Source: Acidobacteriaceae bacterium UBA1307
GTDB taxonomy: Bacteria; Acidobacteriota; Terriglobia; Terriglobales; Acidobacteriaceae
NCBI GenBank assembly: GCA_002307235.1
Contig: DBTV01000037.1
Coordinates: 15,981 to 79,980, forward strand
Length of the DNA: 64,000 bases
Direction of reading: 5' to 3'
This document shows positions 30,387 through 42,558 of the stretch, piece by piece. The notes under the pieces were generated by a model that saw nothing but the letters and a program-made list of their open reading frames with translations, searched no databases and was not told the DNA's origin. The position numbers and the translations under genes are program-made. Numbering within the stretch: the first letter of the stretch is position 1; the number at the start of each line of letters is the position of its first letter.

Positions 30387-30462
30387 GGGCCTGTGGCGCA
30401 GTTGGGAGCGCGCTTCCATGGCATGGAAGAGGTCATCGGTTCGATCCCGATCAGGTCCACCA
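30387..30462 (+). tRNA. tRNA-Ala (anticodon GGC), CCA encoded
   Basis: Hand-folded cloverleaf with a 7-bp acceptor stem including the Ala identity pair G3:U70. D arm GCGC/GCGC. Anticodon stem CTTCC/GGAAG with loop AT-GGC-AT. T arm ATCGG-TTCGATC-CCGAT. Discriminator A followed by CCA. Confidence 0.9.
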
Positions 30463-30533: not shown

Positions 30534-31739
30534 TCACTTTGTATCGATTTTCTCCATCAACATCCCCGCCACCTTCGACTGAGCCTGACGTTTGGCCGAC
30601 GAGATCGCCTGTGCATACACTTCCAGCGTCATTTTGATCGTCGCGTGCCGGAGCAGTTCCTGCACCACCTTGATGTCCTCGCCGTTCGCCTTGAGCAAAG
30701 TTGAAAAGGTGCGCCGGAAGGTATGCCATCCAACGTGCTTCAGAATCTTTGCCCGCGTGACAGCGGGACGGATGTGGCGCTTAAGGAGTGAATCGGGGCT
30801 GTAGGGCTGCTTACCCTTCATTCGCGTGCTGGCGAAGACCCAGTCCTCCGGCTGGTTATAAGCAGTCGCCCGTCGCCAAGTGAGCAATTCCTCTGCGATC
30901 CACGGATCGAGCGGAACCGGCTTGCGGGAGATTTCCGTCTTGCAGCGTCCTACCACCTGACGGTAGATGGACCGAGTGACAGAAAGCTCAAGCTGCTCGA
31001 AGTCCACGTCCAGCCACTTGATGGCCATCAGTTCGCTGCGGCGGAGTCCGGTGACCGAATCCAGCAGTACCATCACCCGATCCCGATGCGACAACTGATC
31101 GAAGAGCAACCGGAGTTCCCCGGCTTCGAGGATGTCTGGAGTCTGCATCCGCTTTGCGCTTTGCCGCACCAACGTGATCGGGTTGGTGCCTTGCGGCATC
31201 AACTCGTGGCGAATGGCGTGATTGAACAGAACGCTCATAATGGACCGGATCTTCGCTTTGCTCCCGCGCGCCAGATTCTCTTTACTCTTGCCGGCTCGTT
31301 TGAGATTGCGCAGCCACTTTTCAACCTGGGTGGTTCGCACCTTACGCAACTCGACGTCGCCCCATTTCGGTAGAACATAGGTATCGAGGATGTCCGAGTA
31401 AGTCGTCCGAGTGGCATAAGAACGGCCTTCCTCTTCGTCATCTTCCCTCTCGACAGGACCGAGTTCGCGCTGCTTAAAGTGGGTAATGAGAGCGCCCACC
31501 GTAATCGGCTGCCCGCCTGATTGCGGTTGCTCTTCGTTAATGGTGATGCGTAAAGCTTCCACGGCTTTCAGAGCGCTGGTCTCGGTCGGGTATTCTTTGA
31601 CCGTTCCCAGCGTCTTCGTCCTGCGTACCCGCTTTCCGCTGGCATCGATGTCCCACCAGCGAAAGGCCCAGCAATCCGGCCCATGCTTCCGCTTCACGCG
31701 GTTTAACATTCCCTGTTGATACCGTGTCCGTCGAAACAT
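30534..31739 (-). CDS. int: Tyrosine-type site-specific integrase
   Basis: Catalytic contexts TGLRRSEL, VGWHTFRRTF and LLRHATIKMTLEVYAQ (R..HxxR..Y). The 3' end of the gene is 71 nt from the tRNA. Confidence 0.9.
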   Translation of the reverse strand: MFRRTRYQQGMLNRVKRKHGPDCWAFRWWDIDASGKRVRRTKTLGTVKEYPTETSALKAVEALRITINEEQPQSGGQPITVGALITHFKQRELGPVEREDDEEEGRSYATRTTYSDILDTYVLPKWGDVELRKVRTTQVEKWLRNLKRAGKSKENLARGSKAKIRSIMSVLFNHAIRHELMPQGTNPITLVRQSAKRMQTPDILEAGELRLLFDQLSHRDRVMVLLDSVTGLRRSELMAIKWLDVDFEQLELSVTRSIYRQVVGRCKTEISRKPVPLDPWIAEELLTWRRATAYNQPEDWVFASTRMKGKQPYSPDSLLKRHIRPAVTRAKILKHVGWHTFRRTFSTLLKANGEDIKVVQELLRHATIKMTLEVYAQAISSAKRQAQSKVAGMLMEKIDTK

Positions 31740-32008
31740 TATTTCCTCCTGTTTCGCACGGCACGGACCGCTGGCTCTGATGGTGCCATATTCTCGTCGC
31801 CGGTGTCCCGATTTTCCTGCATCATTTCTTGAACGAAGGACTCCAGGGCAGAGGCGCGGAACCGCCAGAGTTTGCCGAACTTCATCCCTGGAATTTCGCC
31901 TCTCCGCGCTCTCCGTTTCACGGTCTCAGGATGCACCCGCATGAGCTCCGCCGCCTGCTGGCTGTCCAGTAGCGGCTCAAATTCCTGATCGCCCTTCTTC
32001 TGGCCCAT
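31739..32008 (-). CDS. xis: Excisionase-family helix-turn-helix DNA-binding protein
   Basis: LLDSQQAAELMRVHPETVKRRARRGEIPGMKFGKLWRF. Its stop overlaps the integrase start (TAATG). Start at 32008 or 32023. Confidence 0.7.
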   Translation of the reverse strand: MGQKKGDQEFEPLLDSQQAAELMRVHPETVKRRARRGEIPGMKFGKLWRFRASALESFVQEMMQENRDTGDENMAPSEPAVRAVRNRRK

Positions 32009-32525
32009 GCCCTCTTCTCGCATTCATCTCCCCTGCCGGCACTGGATTCTCGCGGCAAGCGCCAAATGCGAGGAGCCGGAGCGCGGAAAGTCGCATCCGG
32101 TGGTGCCGATAGCCAGAAGATATGGTGATTTTGAGAGCGCGATTATTACTTTCTCGTACCGATCATTCCATCTGCGTCAATAATCCAGAACCACACTTTG
32201 CGGCAGACAAGACAGACCCGCCCACAACCCGAGCCATGGAAAATTGTGCGCCTGCGGTGTTCGCCGAGTGCATTGGCGGATTTAGGGTAAAGCGAGTATC
32301 ACTTCAGGCGAAAAGGGCGTTTGCCGATACTAATGCTTTCCGCCCTACGCAACTAATTCTGATGCTTAGGCTTCAGGGTCGCTGGAGGGCGATTTGGGCG
32401 TTATGCGTCAAGTTTGAATAGCGTGGCAGTCTCAGTCAAGCAGTTTAGCGCGGCTACAGACGCAATGGAAGAGACTCAGGCCAAGGTACGTTCCGGTAAA
32501 CTCGATAGGAGAAGGGCGGTCGAAA

Positions 32526-35039
32526 GTGACGTTCAAATCGCAATTCTCAGCCTCGCAAGATAAGGCGCACAACCGTAACATCGCGACGAAAATCCATGAG
32601 GAAATGGCGAAACTCCGTGCCGTCGTGGATGCATCGCCCACGACACCACGGCGCTGGGTCTGGGAATTGATCCAGAACGCCAAGGACGTGAATATCGAGG
32701 GAAAGGTTCGCGTTCGCATCGAAGCCGACCTGGGTGTCTCGGATGCGAACGTCACCTTCAAGCACAACGGCGGCGTATTCTCACCAGAGAATATCCGTTT
32801 CCTTATCGAGCAGGTATCGTCGAAGGACCGGACGCATGACAGCGGCGGGCGTCCCACGACGACGGGAAAGTTCGGCACGGGGTTTCTCACCACTCACCTC
32901 CTGTCCGAACGCGTCCTTGTCAGGGGTGTTGCGGAGGGACGAGGCTTCGCGCCCAGAAAGTTCAAGCTGTCGCTCGATCGCAGCGGCGCTGAGTTGCAAG
33001 ACATCATCGACGCCGTACAAGCTGCGAAAGACTCAATCCTAAACCTAGACGACCAACCGGAGTATACCGGATACGTCCCCGGAAAATTCAATACTGCCTT
33101 CCGCTATGAACTCGCAGACAAGACTGGCAGGAAGGTTGCGAGCGCTGGTTTGGCAGACCTTGATGTCTGCCTACCCTATACGCTCGCGTTCGTGCGGGAG
33201 ATCGAAAGCGTCGAGTACCCGAACCGTTGGTTGAGCCTGCAAGATCCCGACAATGAACGGGTAAACGGCGAGGTACAAATTCTTTCCGTGATCACTGCGG
33301 ACCCCAGAGGGGGCGCCGATTCTGAGATTTCCTCGATCGCGGTACTGACCAGCGACCTGATAACAATTGCGATACCAGTTAAGCAGACAGCCGACGGTGT
33401 GCGCATCCTTCCGCTTGGTCCTGACGTGCCCCGATTGTTCTGCGATTTTCCGCTCCTCGGCAGCGAATCCTTTCCATTCCCGGTGATCATCAACAATCCT
33501 ACGTTCAATCCGACCGAACCACGGGACGGCGTGTTCCTCACCAAAACCGACCGCCCCTCCTCTCAGATTGACCACAACAAATGCATCATCGAGAAAGCGC
33601 TCGCGCTCTACCTCTCGCTGCTCGAATACGCGTCTGACAACGACTGGCAGCATCTCCATCTTCTCGCCGCCGTAAAGCCTGTTGCATCAGAGCTTGCGCG
33701 GCTTGATAAAATTTGGTACAGAACCGCGATCCTCAAGCCGATGCTGGACACGCTCCTTCACACCAAAATCGTGCGAACAGCAGCGGGCAAACTGGCTCCG
33801 ATTCATTCGCCTGGCGGTAACATCTGGTTTCCGGCCGGTACGACCGAAAAAATCCGACGTGCCATTTGGCGGTGTTGCAAGACGTGGATTCCAGAGCAGC
33901 TACCGGCGCAATCGGACGTAGAAGTCTGGTTTGACATCATTTGGCCCGAGTGCGACAAACTCACACTCGATCAGGTCTCCGCCTTCGTTGAGGAAGACGA
34001 TACAATCGAAAAGCTGGCATCGGAACTGCAGGAAAAAGAAGTCCACGAATGGCTCATGGAGTTCTACGCCACGTTGAAGCTCGACGAGTCCACCTACCAG
34101 GCGGTGATCAACAAACGCCGCATCTTTCCGAACCAGAACGGCACCTTCAAGCGGAAAGCCGACCTCTTCCGCGACGCCGGCGATATCGACCCCACGCTCA
34201 TGGACATCCTCACGTTATTGGGGACGGACCTGCGCGATCAGCTCCTCGATACGGGAATCTCAACAGACCTTGATGATCTCTCCAAGAGAGATGGAGCCTT
34301 CGTTGTCAAGGAAATCACGGCGACGATCGAGAAAAACCTCAATGATCGGGCTGCCACGAAACTCTTTCGCCCCGCACTTGCCAAGCTGCTGCTGTGGTTT
34401 CGCGAAAACACGTCGCGCGCAAAGAAGCTCTTCCCGATGCTTTATGACCAAAAACACTTGCTCTATGACGACGAGCAAATCCTAAACAACATCGAGCGCG
34501 CCGAGGAATTAAACGAACTCCTCGGCGAATACAACGTGAAGAGCGTTGATGAGCTTCGTGCCGTTATCGAGAAGCACACAGCGACTTCACAGCTCTTGCC
34601 CGTGACGCAGCAGATCATCGCCAACCTAGGAATTACCTCCATAGAGGAATGGACGAAAGCGCTCGAAGACAAGGACTTGGCCGCTCTTTTCTCCCATCAG
34701 TCTACAACCACTCCCGAGATGTTCGTTTTAGCGCAATCGTTGATCAAAAAAGCCAAGAAACGTGTCATCGCCCATCTTTTAGAACTTGACCAATACGACC
34801 TTACCGAGATCGACGAGACGGCGCCCACAGTGCTCGCAGGAGTCAAGAAGAACGGCCGGGATGTGACCATCGTGGTGAGACCCGCGTATGATGGCACGGT
34901 GATCATCTACTACCGATCGGAACGCGACGTCCTGGATTTCGTAGACCACGAACTCTGGGTAGATACAGGCAAGGACGTCCAACGAATCACCTTCGGCCAC
35001 ATTCTGAAGAAAACCAATATTCGACGGTTCCCGATATAA
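32526..35039 (+). CDS. Sacsin/MORC/Hsp90-like GHKL ATPase with large helical middle region and possible DUF3883-like C-terminal module
   Basis: Bergerat-fold motifs ELIQNAKDV, HNGGVFSPENI and GKFGTGFLT. No His-kinase features. C-terminus VTIVVRPAYDGTVIIYYRSERDVLDFVDHELWV. GTG start. Confidence 0.7.
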   Translation: MTFKSQFSASQDKAHNRNIATKIHEEMAKLRAVVDASPTTPRRWVWELIQNAKDVNIEGKVRVRIEADLGVSDANVTFKHNGGVFSPENIRFLIEQVSSKDRTHDSGGRPTTTGKFGTGFLTTHLLSERVLVRGVAEGRGFAPRKFKLSLDRSGAELQDIIDAVQAAKDSILNLDDQPEYTGYVPGKFNTAFRYELADKTGRKVASAGLADLDVCLPYTLAFVREIESVEYPNRWLSLQDPDNERVNGEVQILSVITADPRGGADSEISSIAVLTSDLITIAIPVKQTADGVRILPLGPDVPRLFCDFPLLGSESFPFPVIINNPTFNPTEPRDGVFLTKTDRPSSQIDHNKCIIEKALALYLSLLEYASDNDWQHLHLLAAVKPVASELARLDKIWYRTAILKPMLDTLLHTKIVRTAAGKLAPIHSPGGNIWFPAGTTEKIRRAIWRCCKTWIPEQLPAQSDVEVWFDIIWPECDKLTLDQVSAFVEEDDTIEKLASELQEKEVHEWLMEFYATLKLDESTYQAVINKRRIFPNQNGTFKRKADLFRDAGDIDPTLMDILTLLGTDLRDQLLDTGISTDLDDLSKRDGAFVVKEITATIEKNLNDRAATKLFRPALAKLLLWFRENTSRAKKLFPMLYDQKHLLYDDEQILNNIERAEELNELLGEYNVKSVDELRAVIEKHTATSQLLPVTQQIIANLGITSIEEWTKALEDKDLAALFSHQSTTTPEMFVLAQSLIKKAKKRVIAHLLELDQYDLTEIDETAPTVLAGVKKNGRDVTIVVRPAYDGTVIIYYRSERDVLDFVDHELWVDTGKDVQRITFGHILKKTNIRRFPI

Positions 35040-35043
35040 CGCC

Positions 35044-36114
35044 ATGGACATCGCTCAAGACATCTTGGACCGCATTGGTCAACCTGAATCCGAGCAGCTG
35101 GAATACAAAGCGGTGCTGCCACCTGCTGCGACCGTAGCGCAATTGATGAGCTCATTCGCCAATGCAAAGGGAGGAGCCATCGTTCTCGGCGTCGTCGAGA
35201 ACGGTAAAGAGGTCCTCATTAACGGCCTCAGCGATGAATTCCGCGCGGTACAAATCACCCGCAAGGCAATCGATCTGCTCTCTCCATCTCCCACTGCGAA
35301 GTATGACTACATCGTTCATCAGGGCAAGCGCCTCTTCGTCATCGACGTGCAGAAGTCGGACGTATCAGTCTCGCTTGCGGGCAAGAGTTATATCCGGACT
35401 GGTGACCGCACGATTCTCAGGCAGACAGTTCCTGATAAGGCCATCCGAAACACTGGTATTGCCCACCTATCGAAAACTTTCAAAGAGAGCCGCAAGTCTT
35501 GCACCGCCGCGAGAGCGAAGCTGTTGGACCATTACGAAAGCGTTCTCCTTGTCCTCGACGATCTCGGCGATCTCCTATATCCAAAATCGTCAAACCGCCC
35601 GACCGATAATGCTGAAGGCAAGATGCTGATGCGTATCCTCTTCTCCTCGTGCGCTGACACGTTTGAAATCTTCTTATCAGATCTGCTCTACGAAATCTAC
35701 CTTGCGAAGCCCGAGACACTCAAATCTAACGCGCAAGTGACTGTCAAGGAGGTCCTGGATTGCTCCGACATGCAAGAGTTCATCAGCCATCAAGCCAAGG
35801 AGAAACTAAGAAAGCTTAAACGCGGCAGCGTCAAAGGTTTCATCTCGGACAACAAACAGATAAAGTCACTGGATGTGTTCGATACAACGCGGCAAGGAGA
35901 GATCGAGAAAATCTTAGAGATTCGGCATCTCTACGCTCATCAGAATGGACTTGTTGACGAACACTTCCGGAAATACTTTCCTGCCGTAAACCTCAACGAC
36001 GAATATCGGATGACTCTCGATGAGTTTTTGACGCGCTTCGAGTATCTTGCACAAGCCATCGACGCGGTAGATGAGGCCGCGCGTAACGACTACCAGTTGG
36101 CATCCTTTTCATGA
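35044..36114 (+). CDS. AlbA_2 (Schlafen-type) domain protein with C-terminal HEPN-like domain
   Basis: N-terminus ESEQLEYKAVLPP...FANAKGGAIVLGVVENGKEV matches the AlbA_2 pattern. C-terminal helical domain carries Rx4H (EIRHLYAHQNG, 35923-35940). Starts 4 nt after the upstream stop. Confidence 0.65.
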   Translation: MDIAQDILDRIGQPESEQLEYKAVLPPAATVAQLMSSFANAKGGAIVLGVVENGKEVLINGLSDEFRAVQITRKAIDLLSPSPTAKYDYIVHQGKRLFVIDVQKSDVSVSLAGKSYIRTGDRTILRQTVPDKAIRNTGIAHLSKTFKESRKSCTAARAKLLDHYESVLLVLDDLGDLLYPKSSNRPTDNAEGKMLMRILFSSCADTFEIFLSDLLYEIYLAKPETLKSNAQVTVKEVLDCSDMQEFISHQAKEKLRKLKRGSVKGFISDNKQIKSLDVFDTTRQGEIEKILEIRHLYAHQNGLVDEHFRKYFPAVNLNDEYRMTLDEFLTRFEYLAQAIDAVDEAARNDYQLASFS

Positions 36115-36130
36115 ATTGGATCGGTACCAT

Positions 36131-36199
36131 AATGTCGCCATGGCGACGCGAATCCAGGACCTGGTTTTGTCATCAATGGTTCCCATAGGAACGGCGTTT
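36131..36199 (+). repeat. Intergenic two-hairpin repeat, copy A
   Basis: Contains aatGTCGCCATGGCGACgcgaat (perfect 14-nt palindrome), then tcatcaatgGTTCCcataGGAACggcgttt. About 80 percent identical to copy B by hand alignment. Confidence 0.7.
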
Positions 36200-36411: not shown

Positions 36412-37497
36412 ATGTCGCTAGAAGAGCATTTCAACTCAGTCAATCCGCGCGAGGACTCAGGTGCACCAGTCTCTGACCGCTTCCAATACCAAAAGGATTG
36501 GGCGCTGTGCCATCTCCTGAGGTTGCACGCAGATAATGTCGATTACCTGATGGCATTTGATATCCACGACGACGTGGTAATTTTTCAGCCGGAGCAGTCT
36601 CCAAACAAAATCTGCTTCTATCAGGTAAAGACCAAGAAGACGGGTGAAACCTGGACCAAAGGAAAACTCATTGAGCGCCCTAAAGGAAAAGACGGCAATC
36701 CACTCCCTTCAATAGTCGGAAAGATGTATAGCAACGTACTGCTCTTCGCAGATTATGCTCAATGCTCAACGTTCCTTTCCAACGTGCCCTGTAAGCTTGA
36801 ACTGTCGCCCGATGGTAAGCAGGCAGTTCTCTTGAGTGATGTGCGCACTCCCTTCGAAAACCTGCCAAAAAAGTATAGGACAGATATATCGGAAGCTGTA
36901 AAGCAGGAACATTTGCTTACAGCCGACCCGATTCTTGAAAAAATGCTTTGGTTCGAGCTATCCGAACTTCCGCTCGAAGGTCACTCGACTCACACAAAGG
37001 GAAAGCTTGCAGAGTTCTTGGAGGCGCGCAAGCCAGGCAAGTACAACACGCCGCTTGCTTACAAAACTCTCAGTGATGAGTTAAAACGGCGAAATGACTA
37101 CAATCGGCGGAATTTAAGGTTTTCCGAAATGGTCAAATTCAAGGCAATCGGCAGAAGCGAGTTTGAAAAGATCCTCTCAGTTGCTGTTCCTGATGAGACC
37201 GCAGAAAACACATGGCCCGAAGTTGCTGCCCATTTGCTTGATGAGCAATTTGGATTGCAGAAAACTCTCAAGCTTAAGAAAGCTTGGTTCAAAGTTGACA
37301 TGTATCGTTCGGATGCGAGCGATTCTGCATTTTGGGAGACCGCCGAAGTGGCGGCCTCGATAGTCCCCAATCATAGTGATCTGAAACATCTCTTGAGTGA
37401 CGGACTCGAAGACCTCAAGAACAAGATTGCCTGCAGTGTAAAGTTTGAGGATGATATGCTAAGGGCCGTCCTCCTCTTTCAGTTGTTCTGTTCGTAG
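36412..37497 (+). CDS. lmuA: Lamassu effector LmuA, Cap4-type nuclease (DUF4297) N-domain
   Basis: DRFQYQKDWALCHLLRL...MAFDIHDDVVIF...FYQVKTKK fits the DUF4297/Cap4 PD-(D/E)xK pattern. Lies directly upstream of an LmuB-like gene. Confidence 0.7.
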   Translation: MSLEEHFNSVNPREDSGAPVSDRFQYQKDWALCHLLRLHADNVDYLMAFDIHDDVVIFQPEQSPNKICFYQVKTKKTGETWTKGKLIERPKGKDGNPLPSIVGKMYSNVLLFADYAQCSTFLSNVPCKLELSPDGKQAVLLSDVRTPFENLPKKYRTDISEAVKQEHLLTADPILEKMLWFELSELPLEGHSTHTKGKLAEFLEARKPGKYNTPLAYKTLSDELKRRNDYNRRNLRFSEMVKFKAIGRSEFEKILSVAVPDETAENTWPEVAAHLLDEQFGLQKTLKLKKAWFKVDMYRSDASDSAFWETAEVAASIVPNHSDLKHLLSDGLEDLKNKIACSVKFEDDMLRAVLLFQLFCS

Positions 37498-37566
37498 ACC
37501 ACACAACCATGAAGAAACGAAATGCATTTCGTCGTGTTATACGATTCCTGAGGCTAAAGAAAACTC

Positions 37567-39264
37567 TTGCAATCACTGATTCTGAAAAAACTACACCTGC
37601 TGTCGACGACGGAAAAGACGGCAAGACAAGTCGAGTTCGATCCGACGAGAACTCTGGTCCACGGGTCTAATCAGACGGGCAAGTCATCACTCCTCAAGTC
37701 AATCTATTGGGTTTTGGGGGCAGAGCCTGCAGCAGTCAATCCCCGCTGGCTGCAGGCTGATGTTATTGCTCTCCTTGAGTTTGAGCTCGATGGAACAATA
37801 GGGATGATTCTTCGTCATAAGAATCAGTTTGCTGTGTTCCAAGCAGACGGCACGTTGGTCCAGAAGTTCAACAAAGTGTCTTCAGAATTGGGCCCCTATC
37901 TGGCTCAGCAATTCAATTTCAGGCTAAAGCTGTCGACTCGCGGGGGTGATACTGAAATCCCCTCTCCAGCCTACCTATATCTGCCTTACTATGTAGACCA
38001 GGATGCAAGCTGGAAGAGCAACTGGTGTTCTTTTAAGAATCTCGCGCAATATCCATCTTGGCGAAAAGACGTAGCAGAGTTCCATGCGGGAATTCGGCCC
38101 GGTGCATACTATGAACTGAAGGGGCAGAAAACCAAGATAGATTCAGATATAGCTGCCAACGAAGCCGAAAGTAAGATCTTGGAAAACATCATCGGAAGAA
38201 TCCGCAAGACATTTAATTCTTCTGAATTTGATATAAACCTCGCCGATTTTGAGAAAGAAATACAACTCTTGCTGGATGAATCCGGCAAGCTTCTGAAGAA
38301 ACAAAATGAGTACAAGGCGAAATTCACTGCGCTGCATGGCGAACGGATGGAACTTTCGGAGCAGATTCGATTCGCAGAACGTGCAGCCCATGACCTCGAA
38401 AAAGATTACCATTTTGCCACCACCGATACTTCTGAAGCCGAGGTGCATTGCCCGGTCTGCGGGACTGAATATCAGAACTCATTCGCTGAGCGATTTACGA
38501 TTGCTGCTGATGAAGATCGGCTTCTAGTCCTCGTTGCCGACTTAAGAAATCGCATCAGTTCCATTGACGAAGAAGTGGCGTCACTTAACTTGGAGTTTCG
38601 CAAGAACACATCAGAGCTAACAAGAATCGCTGATTTGCTAGCCGTCAAGCGCGAATCGATCACGCTGAAGCAAATCCTGAGCCTGGAAGGTAAGCGCGAA
38701 GCCGATTCTGCACTTAACGACAGAAAAGACGAGCTAGCCAAGGAACTTTTGTCCTTTGCAGAAGACCTGAAACTACTGGCGAAACAGCTCAAAGCATTGA
38801 CAGACAAAAAGCGTGGGGACGAAATTACAGCGTTCTATGTCGCCAAAATGAGGTCCTATCTTTTTAGCCTGCAGTCATCCCTGCATGAGGATACTTACAA
38901 GAAAGTGGATTGCAGTGTTAAGGAGACTGGGAGTAACCTCCCTAGGGCACTACTGGCGTACTACTTCAGCCTCCTGCATACAATTCGGAAGTATGGTGAT
39001 GGAACATATTGCCCTATCGTCATAGACTCACCCAATCAGCAAGCTCAGGACAAGCCCAATCTGACAGCGATACTGAGTTTCATTCGCGATAATCAGCCGT
39101 CTGGCTCTCAAATGATTCTAGGACTTGAGGACGATCTAGGACTGAACATACCTGGACTCAAAATTGAACTTGATAGCAAATACCATCTCTTAAAGTCTGA
39201 CCAGTATAGGGAGACTGCGGACCTGATGCTCCCGATGCTCGCCTCTATGCTGCGTCTGAGTTGA
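37567..39264 (+). CDS. lmuB: Lamassu SMC/Rad50-like ATPase LmuB (DUF3732-type)
   Basis: Walker A GSNQTGKSSLLKS. Long coiled coil with a CPVCG zinc-hook-like apex. C-terminal PIVIDSPNQQAQD matches the DQPSQ-type motif of DUF3732. TTG start per track. Confidence 0.75.
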   Translation: MQSLILKKLHLLSTTEKTARQVEFDPTRTLVHGSNQTGKSSLLKSIYWVLGAEPAAVNPRWLQADVIALLEFELDGTIGMILRHKNQFAVFQADGTLVQKFNKVSSELGPYLAQQFNFRLKLSTRGGDTEIPSPAYLYLPYYVDQDASWKSNWCSFKNLAQYPSWRKDVAEFHAGIRPGAYYELKGQKTKIDSDIAANEAESKILENIIGRIRKTFNSSEFDINLADFEKEIQLLLDESGKLLKKQNEYKAKFTALHGERMELSEQIRFAERAAHDLEKDYHFATTDTSEAEVHCPVCGTEYQNSFAERFTIAADEDRLLVLVADLRNRISSIDEEVASLNLEFRKNTSELTRIADLLAVKRESITLKQILSLEGKREADSALNDRKDELAKELLSFAEDLKLLAKQLKALTDKKRGDEITAFYVAKMRSYLFSLQSSLHEDTYKKVDCSVKETGSNLPRALLAYYFSLLHTIRKYGDGTYCPIVIDSPNQQAQDKPNLTAILSFIRDNQPSGSQMILGLEDDLGLNIPGLKIELDSKYHLLKSDQYRETADLMLPMLASMLRLS

Positions 39265-39683: not shown

Positions 39684-40943
39684 TCATTCGGCGACAATTC
39701 CGGCGGGAGCGCTTAGGTTCGTTGGAATATCGAAGGCCATCACGGTGAGAGTAATCTCTCGGTTCGCATCGTTCGGCTGTGCGAAGACGTACCGGAAAGT
39801 GCTCTCGTCAGATTTGCCAAGATCGCGTTTGAAATTGCTATGCGTTGGAACAGCTTCGTCGATCTTTGAGAGAACAGCCGTGAAATCAGCATTTCTGTTG
39901 AAAATGATGACAGCGGTCTTCGTGTCTCTCCAACTCAGATAGGAGAGAAGCTGGTCGAGGGTTGCGAGAAATGCCTTTTCACCTTTCCAGAATTTACACT
40001 CGCCAATAAAAACGCTCTTCCCATCGACGCGAATGAGAATGTCGGTCTTACCCTGGAAATTGAATGTCTCCCCGGTGGCCTGGCCCTGAAAGGCGCCGTT
40101 AAGCTGCACAAGAAAGTGGAAGCGCAGGTCTTCTTCGCCCATGCCTGAAAATGCGTGAGGGCTGAGTTCCATTACTTGCACCATGTTCTTCATGATGCGG
40201 AGTATTTCCTGATAATCCTCGTCGGAGAGAGCGGGCTCGGGCTTGAATGACCCTTGCGTTCTGATCTGCTCGACCTTCGGCACGCGCCGAGAGACGGGAA
40301 CGGCATAGGTGGCGGGTGCGCCGGCGCGCCTTTTCATCGGCAGACCGATCGCCGCCGTCATGCCGGCATCCGCAAGAAGCCGGTCTTTGCGGGTCTTGAT
40401 CTGCGACGTGACCAAATTTTCAAGCTGGCTGTTGAATTGCGCTGCCGATTCCGAGAGAGAGCGCAAGTACTGCTTGATGGAATTCACGGTTCCCTGGTAA
40501 TCGCGCTTAATCGCCTCGGCGTTCTGATCCGTTCTGACATAGGTGAGGAGCAGTTCGCCTTTTCCAATCATAGCTCGGGGTGGACTGAGCGAATAGCTGC
40601 TGGGCTGGACATTGAAAAACTCCGCATCGCCCTTGAAGGGCACCGCGATGACCGTCCTGTTGCCGGGAACATAGAAAGCTCGCGACCGGTCGTAAATCCC
40701 TCTCATGGGATCGCCGCTAACATCGACCTGGGTTTCCCCAGATTCGGCGATATAGATGCCGTCATCGTCAATCACAGGCACATTCAGGCGGAATTCTTCG
40801 ATGAGCGCCTCAACGAGGTCGTGTTCGCTTGCGTTCAGGAGGGTGGCGGACGGAATCGCCTGTATCCTCTTCTTTACGGCCTGCGGTTGGTTCTGCAGAA
40901 TTCCGAATATCTCATATTTATTGAACAGAAGCTCGTCATTCAT
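39684..40943 (-). CDS. Hypothetical protein with C-terminal PD-(D/E)xK nuclease-like domain
   Basis: GKTDILIRVDGKSVFIGECKFWKG gives the D...ExK core (39993-40043). No recognisable N-domain. ATG 40943 follows AAGAGG. Confidence 0.6.
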   Translation of the reverse strand: MNDELLFNKYEIFGILQNQPQAVKKRIQAIPSATLLNASEHDLVEALIEEFRLNVPVIDDDGIYIAESGETQVDVSGDPMRGIYDRSRAFYVPGNRTVIAVPFKGDAEFFNVQPSSYSLSPPRAMIGKGELLLTYVRTDQNAEAIKRDYQGTVNSIKQYLRSLSESAAQFNSQLENLVTSQIKTRKDRLLADAGMTAAIGLPMKRRAGAPATYAVPVSRRVPKVEQIRTQGSFKPEPALSDEDYQEILRIMKNMVQVMELSPHAFSGMGEEDLRFHFLVQLNGAFQGQATGETFNFQGKTDILIRVDGKSVFIGECKFWKGEKAFLATLDQLLSYLSWRDTKTAVIIFNRNADFTAVLSKIDEAVPTHSNFKRDLGKSDESTFRYVFAQPNDANREITLTVMAFDIPTNLSAPAGIVAE

Positions 40944-41103
40944 GTGGGCGCCTCTTAACATGTGCAGACTTCTATGTCTGATCGTCTTCCCAAGTTTGCA
41001 GAAACTATCGCGTACAACAATTGAAATTGTAAATCGATCCCCGAAAGAGGTGAACACCATCTCAGTCGCGGCATGGCGGCGTTCGGCCCACCGGATCGGT
41101 CCC

Positions 41104-41196: not shown

Positions 41197-42558
41197 TTAT
41201 AGAATGACGTCAGAATCCGCAGGTTGCGATGTATTTTTCGATTTTACCCATTTGAGAAATGCTTCAATCTCGTCCGGATGAGAGGGTGAGGATCTGTAAC
41301 CGGCAAGCTCAATCACAGCGCGTCGAAGCACGCTCGCCACGAATTCTTCGAGTCCGTCTCGGTCGATTCCAATATGCGGCTGAAGTGTGGACATGACACC
41401 GTGGAGGATTTTTGACCGATTTTCCACAATGGACTTCGCAAATTCATTAGCGGTCGTAGATGATCCAGAAACGATAGGGGCCTCCGGTTTTAGATTGAAA
41501 AAGGCTTCCAACACTAAGCGGATTCGCCGTTGACTTCCTTTCGTGCTTGTCGATTTCAAAAGGACCTCAAGCGATGTCTCAAGCTTCGCTATCGCGATAG
41601 AATCTATTCGTTCCGCCAAAGCCTCGTGATACCAATAGGCGGCATCGCACCAAGCTCGCTCTAACAGGGGAAGCGTAAAGTGGCCGTTAGCAAACGCTGT
41701 CACGCATATCCCAACCGCATCGACCAAAGTCGCGCAGTTTAGCAAAATGTCCTGCATAGTTCCCGGGCCGATATTGATGCCTGCATCGTGAATGCTGTGA
41801 CTGCCACAGTCCGTCGTGGCCGTTCGAGAGAGCGTCTGGCTTTTGGCTCCACCACGACGTGCATCGAGCCTAGACATCCTCCGCGTATTCCATGAAGTCG
41901 GGAGGGCCAACTGCAGCGTCACAATGGCCAGATCGGCTGCAAGCGCCCCGATCTCCTCGCCTCGCTCTTGGTCACTGCCTTCGACGCTGATCTGAGCAAG
42001 CCAGTGAGCACGTTCCGACTTCATGCGTTCGAGCATTGCGTCGAAGTTTTTCCTTAGCATCGAATCCGCAATAGGGGGGTAGAAGTCGGCTCGGGGGACA
42101 TCATCCACGTAAATGAAACGCACCGACCCGATCGTGAATTGCGAAGCAGGCCAGGGCGAAATCGCACATGGAACAAAGACTACGCGAGGTTCAGCCTCGT
42201 GCTGAAACCACGTCCTCAGCTGAGCAACTAGAGCCGTGACATCGTTTGACAGCAGCAACGCGGGGTCGCTCCCAATGTGGCTCTCGATCGCCGTGAAAAT
42301 CTTTCGTCTGATGCGCCGAAAATCGATGCCACGATCCAAGCCTTGGCATTCCTTGATTAGTGCTTGTGCAAGACTGTCGAGTGCGTCGTACGCATCCCGA
42401 GTGAAGACGGCAGTACCTCTTAAACTAGGTAAAAACCACACCATCCCCTCTGATCGAAGATAGTCCGGCGTGACGTCGAGAAAATGGATCGGCCGTTCTT
42501 CTGTACCTCGAATGACAGCGCGCAGCAGCCCCAACTCTCTTCCATAGTCAGATGGCAT
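41197..42558 (-). CDS. Hypothetical protein with C-terminal HEPN-like helical domain
   Basis: 453 aa. C-terminal helical region with an Rx4H signature in IVENRSKILHGV (41401-41418). No other recognisable motifs. Confidence 0.45.
   Translation of the reverse strand: MPSDYGRELGLLRAVIRGTEERPIHFLDVTPDYLRSEGMVWFLPSLRGTAVFTRDAYDALDSLAQALIKECQGLDRGIDFRRIRRKIFTAIESHIGSDPALLLSNDVTALVAQLRTWFQHEAEPRVVFVPCAISPWPASQFTIGSVRFIYVDDVPRADFYPPIADSMLRKNFDAMLERMKSERAHWLAQISVEGSDQERGEEIGALAADLAIVTLQLALPTSWNTRRMSRLDARRGGAKSQTLSRTATTDCGSHSIHDAGINIGPGTMQDILLNCATLVDAVGICVTAFANGHFTLPLLERAWCDAAYWYHEALAERIDSIAIAKLETSLEVLLKSTSTKGSQRRIRLVLEAFFNLKPEAPIVSGSSTTANEFAKSIVENRSKILHGVMSTLQPHIGIDRDGLEEFVASVLRRAVIELAGYRSSPSHPDEIEAFLKWVKSKNTSQPADSDVIL

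Follow-up and report, generated by a model that had tools for sequence, protein, structure and literature searches.

A predicted two-gene variant of the Tiamat defence system: a TmtA-type sacsin-like ATPase coupled to a Schlafen–HEPN-like protein on an acidobacterial mobile element

Layout of the locus

The window analysed here is a stretch of 64,000 nucleotides from Acidobacteriaceae bacterium UBA1307 (assembly GCA_002307235.1, contig DBTV01000037.1, positions 15,981 to 79,980 of the forward strand); all coordinates below refer to it unless another locus is named. Among the cargo of a mobile element it carries two adjacent genes, hereafter gene 1 and gene 2. Gene 1 is a predicted sacsin-type GHKL ATPase of the named defence family Tiamat (TmtA), and gene 2 encodes a protein with an N-terminal AlbA_2/Schlafen domain and a helical, probably HEPN, C-terminal domain. 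We describe the pair as a conserved unit and as a candidate variant of Tiamat in which the effector is provided by a separate protein.

A preliminary description of this DNA had quoted the two open reading frames (ORFs), their junction and a number of motifs, including the C-terminal VTIVVRPAYDGTVIIYYRSERDVLDFVDHELWV of gene 1; all of them were recovered at the expected positions (Table 1). The motifs lie far beyond chance, since the families of both proteins are large and conserved (1562 homologs of gene 1 and 951 of gene 2 at E ≤ 1e-3) and the quoted motif residues are invariant in them. The top 120 homologs of gene 2 all measure ~356 aa. Because only 4 nt separate the genes and no separate Shine–Dalgarno sequence is seen in the sequence upstream of gene 2, the junction is consistent with translational coupling.

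Table 1. Features of the two-gene locus, in window coordinates
Feature	Position	Strand	Basis and remarks
Shine–Dalgarno-like AGGAGAAGGG	32507..32516	+	Read from sequence; 5′ of gene 1 GTG
Gene 1	32526..35039	+	ORF; 837 aa; GTG start; predicted TmtA-type (Tiamat family) sacsin-like GHKL ATPase
Bergerat-fold ATP-binding core, gene 1 aa 42–132	32649..32921	+	NF047352; weak HATPase_c
N-box ELIQNAKDV, gene 1 aa 47–55	32664–32690	+	Sequence
HNGGVF, gene 1 aa 80–85	32763–32780	+	Sequence
G2 box GKFGTGFLT, gene 1 aa 114–122	32865–32891	+	Sequence
PNQNGTF motif, gene 1 aa 535–541	34128..34148	+	Marks the single copy of a ~190-aa repeat
C-terminal alpha/beta module, gene 1 aa ~729–837 (VVRPAYDG...SERDVLD...HELWV)	34710..35036	+	Conserved in short and long relatives; AlphaFold2
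Gene junction	35037..35043	+	Gene 1 TAA at 35037–35039, then 4-nt spacer to gene 2 ATG
Gene 2	35044..36114	+	ORF; 356 aa; ATG start; AlbA_2/Schlafen + HEPN-like protein, predicted effector
AlbA_2/Schlafen domain, gene 2 aa 15–123	35086..35412	+	Pfam PF04326, E = 1.3e-14, 55.1 bits against gathering 25.3
Catalytic-type motif E15-SEQL-E20-Y-K22, gene 2	35086–35109	+	Matches Ex4(E/D)xK
All-helical C-terminal domain, gene 2 aa ~135–356	35446..36111	+	Putative RiboL-PSP-type HEPN; AlphaFold2, PF18735
R294-H295-x3-H299 (RHLYAH), gene 2 aa 294–299	35923–35940	+	Rx4H
Perfect 14-nt palindrome GTCGCCATGGCGAC	36134..36147	+	Starts 20 nt past the gene 2 stop; without T-run

Gene 1, a sacsin-type ATPase on the TmtA scaffold

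Residues 1–648 of gene 1 align with positions 1–640 of the 1063-position PADLOC TmtA model PDLC03967 (E = 2.5e-127, 425 bits), a significant match that extends over 60% of the profile; the other TmtA models match in the GHKL core alone (E 1e-4 to 1e-9). The N-terminal ~130 residues pass the NCBIfam model NF047352, "sacsin N-terminal ATP-binding-like" (64 bits, cutoff 50), and Pfam HATPase_c gives a weak score of 21 bits, under its 26.4 cutoff. Nine residues of the ATP-binding motifs (E47, Q50, N51, D54, H80, G82, G114, G117 and G119) are invariant in 28 relatives of 27–46% identity. Motif II reads H80-N-G, as in sacsin-like proteins, whereas classical GHKL proteins possess DxGxG with an aspartate. 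The sacsin flavour that the preliminary description had ascribed to this ATPase is thus borne out by the NCBIfam model. Its statement that the pair corresponds to no named system survives in part: gene 1 belongs to a named family, so the label "unrecognised" is wrong for this gene, and what carries no name is its pairing with gene 2.

Searched exhaustively, a set of 1.84 billion representative proteins contained 1839 relatives of gene 1. Their first ~600 aa are common to several architectures built on the TmtA scaffold, among which forms of ~840 aa resemble gene 1. A repeat of ~190 aa (PNQxGxF...LGxDxR) is present in one copy in gene 1, two copies in forms of ~1030 aa and three in forms of ~1300 aa, and judging from these sequences, among them P0246, P0332 and P0346, it may serve as a variable-number sensing module. 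Other relatives possess a genuine NOV_C/DUF3883 end (P0332, P0334, P0355 and P0360; 29–43 bits, cutoff 22.1) or a DarT ADP-ribosyltransferase end (P0336 and P0375), and one form (P0300) carries an N-terminal trypsin domain. Giant relatives of ~3100 aa with six matched stretches were also found (P0350/P0369). In L015 (5813–7996), a variant of the P0033 locus from a peat metagenome, the called gene 1 homolog measures 727 aa and is shortened at its N-terminus, next to neighbouring variants of 839 aa; this call may be a frameshift or start-site artefact. Relatives of 1220–1430 aa were inspected for a Rosetta-stone fusion joining gene 1 to gene 2 and turned out to contain extra repeats or DUF3883/DarT fusions and no AlbA_2.

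The C-terminus of gene 1 had been likened to DUF3883, an assignment that we abandon. No PF13020 match was obtained at E ≤ 1 with the full protein or the isolated C-terminus, nor was one obtained with nine relatives, and hhalign gave a probability of 0.2% against the genuine NOV_C ends of P0332, P0334, P0355 and P0360. An AlphaFold2 model of residues 635–837 found no significant fold match in the PDB with Foldseek, and no D...ExK triad occurs among the invariant residues of gene 1. The cis C-terminal PD-(D/E)xK nuclease (DUF3883/NOV_C) associated with Tiamat is therefore lacking here. We also discarded a first hypothesis in which gene 1 was a TmtA whose C-terminus had been exchanged: its relatives of ~1030 aa keep the same module and differ by the inserted ~190-aa repeat. 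In the model this module is composed of helix and beta-sheet with a core predicted local distance difference test (pLDDT) score of 80–89, and it is probably a partner-docking module. Both AlphaFold2 models, of the gene 1 C-terminus and of gene 2, are mediocre because the underlying alignments are shallow in diversity.

Conservation of the pair

Metagenomes were scanned with a diverse gene 1 alignment (members of 27–46% identity), yielding 80 loci, the top-scoring of at least 534 matches. Informative loci, in which gene 1 is intact and followed by 1 kb or more of sequence, numbered 63; of these, 53 carry a full gene 2-type partner, five an AlbA_2 protein with another C-domain and five something else. 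An AlbA_2 gene follows the ATPase gene in 58/63 loci, in the same order and orientation and in several phyla, a partner figure (92%) that is biased toward closer relatives because the loci are the best-scoring subset of the matches, the frequency in the whole TmtA superfamily being lower. In 52 non-redundant loci the gaps are almost always 3–18 nt, and the identities of both proteins to the window pair, ranging over 31–100%, correlate with r = 0.95. Gene 2 is the slower-evolving of the two (45–56% against 31–35% identity for gene 1), a pattern expected for a conserved effector joined to a fast-evolving sensor, if these predicted roles are correct.

Most examples of the pair come from metagenome-assembled genomes (MAGs) or metagenome contigs. 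In genomes it occurs in Acidobacteriota MAGs, a Flavobacterium MAG (34% identity for gene 1 and 53% for gene 2) and a Bdellovibrionota genome. A gene 1 homolog lies immediately 5′ of gene 2 in 7/8 genome loci with upstream sequence, and for every genome-derived gene 2 homolog with such sequence the immediate upstream neighbour is gene 1 or what remains of it. The pairing is kept in the long-form P0246, in the 46% relative P0241 and in the 29% relative P0358, the last of these beside Thoeris. A cultured isolate is represented as well: on Bacillus cereus FM1 plasmid CP009368.1 (locus L107, 4956–8339) the TmtA-type gene BG03_5694 is followed after 15 nt by BG03_5693, an AlbA_2-TIR_2 gene annotated as "divergent AAA domain protein". 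The two adjoin PifA, a PifA-like KAP NTPase. Gene 1 and gene 2 thus form a real co-occurring unit, as the preliminary description had supposed from their spacing, and in this the locus departs from the single-gene definition of Tiamat.

These data bear on the view that a Tiamat TmtA and a stand-alone prokaryotic Schlafen (pSlfn) are two independent single-gene systems lying side by side in an island. Tiamat is defined as a single-gene system, many pSlfns are single proteins and defence genes cluster, all of which would fit; however, the 58/63 adjacency, the short gaps, the fixed order and orientation across several phyla, the correlated divergence and the presence of gene 1 or a remnant upstream of every genome-derived gene 2 homolog argue against independence, as does the absence from gene 1 of the nuclease that canonical TmtA carries in cis. 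We consider this view highly improbable.

Tight coupling would also be expected of a toxin–antitoxin or addiction module, in which gene 2 is a constitutive RNase toxin held by a chaperone-like gene 1, whose loss or titration frees the toxin and thereby stabilises the integrative and conjugative element (ICE), causes abortive infection, or both. The two genes do sit on a mobile element beside its integrase and excisionase genes, sacsin-type domains have chaperone activity according to literature cited in PMC3710099, and HEPN proteins are the toxins of HEPN-MNT toxin–antitoxin systems (PMC3710099). Yet the would-be antitoxin is atypical, being an 837-aa protein encoded upstream of the toxin and evolving faster than it, and sister clades fuse the scaffold to cis effectors, which fits a sensor–effector relation rather than a neutraliser. 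At locus L003 (7820–9071), only the final 58 codons of gene 1 are left, bordered by unrelated DNA that encodes a DnaG-type primase on the opposite strand; the gene 2 homolog (82% identity) is complete. Gene 2 without a full gene 1 is thus not obviously lethal in this single MAG case, and the locus is slight evidence that cells tolerate gene 2 by itself, which speaks for activation rather than an antitoxin relation. On balance an addiction module seems quite unlikely to us.

Gene 2, a candidate Schlafen nuclease with a HEPN-like domain

The preliminary description had recognised the AlbA_2 domain at the N-terminus of gene 2, an assignment that Pfam supports well above the gathering threshold; however, it took this domain as accessory and overlooked an intact Schlafen catalytic motif. 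The sequence Ex4(E/D)xK is the active site of prokaryotic Schlafens, which are phage-activated tRNases (PMC13056530). In the 53 full partners E15 is retained in 48, E20 in 49 and K22 in 52. Because the Ex4ExK motif is intact, the AlbA_2 domain of gene 2 is a candidate nuclease rather than a mere binding or accessory domain. No PADLOC or NCBIfam model matches gene 2. With the AlphaFold2 model of gene 2, Foldseek gave a marginal match for the AlbA_2 part in the PDB (3lmm, E = 0.07). Sequence-profile searches of the PDB returned marginal SLFN8/11/14 matches together with noise.

The C-terminal domain had been described as HEPN on the strength of its Rx4H signature. This signature is exact: R294-HLYA-H299 agrees with the conserved Rx4-6H of HEPN proteins, and R294, H295, H299 and G302 are 100% invariant in the 53 partners, whose identities span 40–85%. 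The domain is helical in the AlphaFold2 model (pLDDT 70–90; mean over the whole model, 64). Among 39 diverse C-domains, PF18735 (HEPN_RiboL-PSP) was the most recurrent Pfam family, with 15 matches at E ≤ 10, and the sole one to reach E ≤ 1e-3, which it did in five cases (best 3e-6). The HEPN survey of 2013 had already reported Schlafen–HEPN fusions (PMC3710099). Taken together, motif and profile matches suggest that the C-domain is probably HEPN. The window protein itself scores under threshold against PF18735 (E = 0.027–0.068, 13.5–14.8 bits, cutoff 28.4), Foldseek with the gene 2 model (mean pLDDT 64) returned nothing from the PDB at E ≤ 1e-3 and no HEPN protein in its top 50, and sequence-profile searches of the PDB gave no HEPN match for gene 2. 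The earlier claim is accordingly moderately supported, at the level of the family, by the invariant motif and the PF18735 matches, and lacks a fold match or an above-threshold score for the window protein.

Exchangeable effectors

The C-domain of gene 2 is swapped for other domains in several relatives: TIR_2 in L046, L064 and B. cereus FM1 plasmid CP009368.1, CAP12/Pycsar-TIR in L083 and caspase in L100. It is exactly in these TIR, CAP12-TIR and caspase variants that the Ex4ExK motif is degenerate (E...K-Y-A, E...K-Y-D, E...A-Y-K, or absent). AlbA_2 is the constant element among the swapped trans effectors, whether HEPN-like, TIR, CAP12-TIR or caspase.

In a few loci the TmtA-type gene keeps the C-terminal module next to a different type of partner. 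These include a superfamily 1 helicase with PIN_4 (L085, 9252–11582; L091, 5710–8019) and a 302-aa ORF with a textbook RNELSH motif and no Pfam match (L102, 8399–9304); homology of the gene 2 C-domain to this last ORF was tried and rejected (hhalign probability 0.6%). An SNF2 helicase takes the place of the AlbA_2 partner in L101. In the marine locus L021 (1047–2996), an extra gene for a 649-aa HATPase_c_3 protein overlaps the start of the TmtA-type gene, with AbiEii and DUF2779 downstream; this is possibly a three-gene variant. Judged by its domain architectures, the TmtA scaffold looks like a sensor combined with interchangeable effectors, either in cis (DUF3883, DarT) or in trans.

The pattern of exchange also enters the question of whether gene 2 contains one nuclease or two. 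Schlafen could be the sole effector, and the helical C-domain a regulatory, docking or ligand-binding part whose R/H residues bind a ligand or the ATPase. The Schlafen motif is kept only together with the helical C-domain and lost with TIR or caspase, so that the Schlafen domain could be the effector; characterised pSlfns pair their nuclease with a non-catalytic sensor domain (PMC13056530); and the sub-threshold HEPN score of the window protein, with no HEPN in the Foldseek and PDB profile searches, points in the same direction. Against this, PF18735 is the sole Pfam family at E ≤ 1e-3 and recurs in 5–15 of the 39 members, the Rx4H spacing is exact and invariant, fusions of the same type were reported in the 2013 survey, and the C-domain occupies the position of the TIR, caspase and CAP12-TIR effectors of relatives. 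We regard a single nuclease as possible but doubtful, and keep to a predicted effector with both a Schlafen and a HEPN-like domain.

Genomic context

The element that carries the pair is inserted at tRNA-Ala (30387–30462). An integrase (30534–31739) and an HTH_17 excisionase (31739–32023), both on the minus strand, precede the pair; LmuA and LmuB of a Lamassu system follow gene 2, and PDC-S54 is also found in the cargo (PADLOC). Farther along the 97-kb source contig lie a methyltransferase gene and the type IV secretion system genes TrbC/VirB3/VirB4. The GC fraction falls from ~0.60 to 0.47–0.56 across the cargo region. The setting given in the preliminary description (tRNA-Ala, integrase and excisionase, Lamassu, ICE) is thus recovered at the locus and in the source contig. 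LmuA starts after a gap of 297 nt, within which the palindrome GTCGCCATGGCGAC sits; it is a possible operon boundary. The terminator scan did not score this palindrome, and the number of sites in consensus promoter and terminator scans was not above chance.

The Lamassu genes (36412–39264) comprise LmuA with a Cap4 nuclease and LmuB; an LmuC is not obvious. They are followed on the minus strand by a strong PDC-S54 homolog (39684–41060, E = 8e-158) and a 453-aa ORF (41197–42558) for which Pfam and NCBIfam gave no match and PADLOC no meaningful one. The PDC-S54 homolog and the 453-aa ORF also accompany the cassette in L019 and L020.

Flanking genes were surveyed with PADLOC models (E ≤ 1e-10) in 102 ORFs from 24 diverse loci. 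They include Lamassu of several subtypes, Gabija A and B, SIR2-HerA, a Pycsar cyclase, AbiEi/AbiEii, MADS, DpdF, CBASS E1-E2 and PDC-S54; single loci add Thoeris, AbiJ-NTD3, a DRT-type reverse transcriptase, a McrA-like gene, a Septu-like pair and PifA. Association of the pair with defence islands, proposed earlier from the window, therefore extends to these loci, and the pair recurs in islands carrying integrases. The weight given earlier to the Lamassu neighbour does not stand: beyond the element in the window, no relatives of the window's LmuA/LmuB turned up beside the pair. The Lamassu subtypes that neighbour it at other loci are different ones, so co-location with Lamassu is a shared island niche with no specific link. 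Dependence on Lamassu, or a role of the pair as a Lamassu component, was rejected because the pair is found in many other contexts. A phage-borne origin was likewise rejected, no relatives having been found in IMG/VR or GenBank phages.

A non-defence function, such as an ICE-encoded RNA-processing, regulatory or stress module, might be considered, as ~30% of pSlfn genes lie away from known defence genes (PMC13056530). However, known defence systems predominate in the flanks of unrelated loci, the partner domains TIR, caspase, CAP12-TIR and PIN are typical of immune effectors, and the pair is absent from the phage genomes and viral contigs searched yet recurs in integrase-bearing islands. We give such a function very little credence.

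Comparison with known systems

Tiamat was described as a single-gene anti-phage system (Millman et al. 2022), was assigned a PD-(D/E)xK nuclease in one survey (10.1101/2024.10.26.620412) and is enriched in island hotspots according to the literature; the Millman preprint text does not describe its domains. Gene 1 shares with Tiamat the sacsin-type GHKL head, the ~600-aa N-terminal scaffold and the residence in defence islands, and the NOV_C/DUF3883 nuclease that Tiamat should possess is found in relatives built on this scaffold. Unlike it, gene 1 has no DUF3883/PD-(D/E)xK domain, matches 60% of the profile and is coupled to a second gene without a PADLOC model, so that the predicted effector stands in trans and is swappable.

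The prokaryotic Schlafen nucleases (Perez Taboada et al. 2026, PMC13056530) resemble gene 2 in PF04326 with an intact Ex4(E/D)xK, in their location in defence islands and in the extra domain C-terminal to Schlafen. However, in characterised pSlfns the sensor (Ig-like, DUF262 or HisKinase) is fused to the nuclease within one protein, whereas in the pair an 837-aa ATPase encoded by its own gene is the candidate sensor and Schlafen is fused to a second putative nuclease. The main text of PMC13056530 makes no reference to a Tiamat, GHKL or HEPN connection. A link of TmtA/Tiamat to Schlafen or HEPN was not found in the searchable papers either, a set that excludes the final Millman paper and the pSlfn supplements.

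The best mechanistic analogue of the pair is Schlatpase/SLFN-pAgo, which likewise joins a Schlafen nuclease to a Bergerat-fold ATPase. In SLFN-pAgo, binding of ATP to the GHKL domain leads to tetramerisation that assembles the active SLFN tRNase (10.64898/2026.05.29.728809). The ATPase of Schlatpase is of the histidine-kinase-like PF13749 type and fused in cis, whereas that of the pair is of sacsin/TmtA type and encoded by a separate gene; neither gene 1 nor gene 2 matches PF13749 at E ≤ 0.1. The earlier suggestion that the pair is a split form of the common AlbA_2–GHKL fusion consequently fails, as that fusion uses PF13749, and we treat the resemblance to Schlatpase as analogy, not as a split.

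Association of a sacsin/MORC-type GHKL ATPase with HEPN is also seen in eukaryotic sacsin and in paraMORC-Ymh HEPN fusions (PMC3710099), and gene 1 passes the sacsin ATP-binding model as reported above. Eukaryotic sacsin differs in that a single giant, chaperone-like polypeptide holds Hsp90-like sacsin repeat region (SRR) ATPase modules and a C-terminal HEPN along with UBL and DnaJ domains, and no Schlafen. By analogy, the sacsin-type ATPase–HEPN association of the pair would mirror eukaryotic sacsin, an intriguing parallel. Another relative in design is the MAE_18760 HEPN family (Anantharaman et al. 2013), with an N-terminal Schlafen, a C-terminal HEPN and a predicted abortive infection-like function; it was reported with ParA/Soj ATPase operons, not GHKL, and the gene 2 C-domain matches RiboL-PSP-HEPN.

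Proposed mechanism and significance

The best reading of the locus is an undescribed two-gene variant of Tiamat, which is solid at the comparative-genomic level. Going further, we think it rather probable, with due reserve, that the pair is one defence operon against phages or other mobile genetic elements, a Tiamat branch with a trans effector composed of a sensor ATPase and a Schlafen–HEPN RNase.

We hypothesize that gene 1 acts as sensor and switch and is made up of a GHKL ATPase head, a repeat-containing middle region probably recognising an infection cue and a small C-terminal module probably docking the gene 2 partner. Gene 2 would be the effector, with a Schlafen nuclease and a HEPN-like domain. 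Schlafen and HEPN nucleases are taken here to be active only as dimers or oligomers. Sensing of infection would lead to ATP-dependent GHKL dimerisation or a conformational change in gene 1; two gene 2 protomers would thereby be joined and begin to cleave RNA, most likely tRNA, and the resulting translation stop would abort the infection. The comparative data show the domain identities, the conserved motifs, the coupling and co-divergence of the genes, their defence-island context and the exchange of effectors; that ATP gates the switch, that the two proteins interact, that RNA is the target and that infection is aborted are inferred.

Several points weigh against this interpretation, in addition to the bias of the partner figure toward closer relatives, the sub-threshold PF18735 score and the fold search without HEPN given above. 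An AlbA_2 partner is missing from about 8% of the relatives that share the C-terminal module (helicase-PIN, SNF2 or small ORFs instead), and some gene 1 relatives appear solitary (Calothrix plasmid); the scaffold can therefore act with other partners or alone. Competence of gene 1 for ATP hydrolysis is assumed, given H80 at the position of the motif II aspartate. The mechanism of canonical Tiamat is listed as unknown in two reviews, and family membership supplies none. Defence, ATPase activity, interaction and RNA cleavage are all predictions from sequence.

We speculate further, on a proposal that we consider unlikely as a whole, that the sacsin-type GHKL ATPase is a dimerisation clamp driven by ATP, which recruits AlbA_2-anchored effectors through the C-terminal module and builds the composite active sites of two distinct dimer-dependent RNases, Schlafen and HEPN, only upon infection, with AlbA_2 doubling as a universal adaptor for the exchange of effectors (HEPN, TIR, CAP12-TIR and caspase). 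Human sacsin is the protein mutated in ARSACS, the Charlevoix-Saguenay type of autosomal recessive spastic ataxia, and its HEPN domain is unexplained; under the same proposal, that domain would have its evolutionary origin in the bacterial partnership of sacsin ATPase and HEPN, or would find a working model there.

Tiamat is a validated anti-phage system, and a modular scaffold would give the family a directly testable sensor–effector logic. The pair appears to represent a large, previously unremarked clade in which the Tiamat scaffold works with a trans effector on an AlbA_2-anchored protein. Present annotation tools would name gene 1 only and miss the effector; "Tiamat" calls in this clade are incomplete because of it. 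The B. cereus FM1 megaplasmid genes BG03_5694/BG03_5693, as a cultured example, offer a practical experimental entry point. If our reading is correct, the pair would be a second, independent case of a Bergerat-fold ATPase combined with a Schlafen nuclease, and a bacterial counterpart of the sacsin ATPase–HEPN association.

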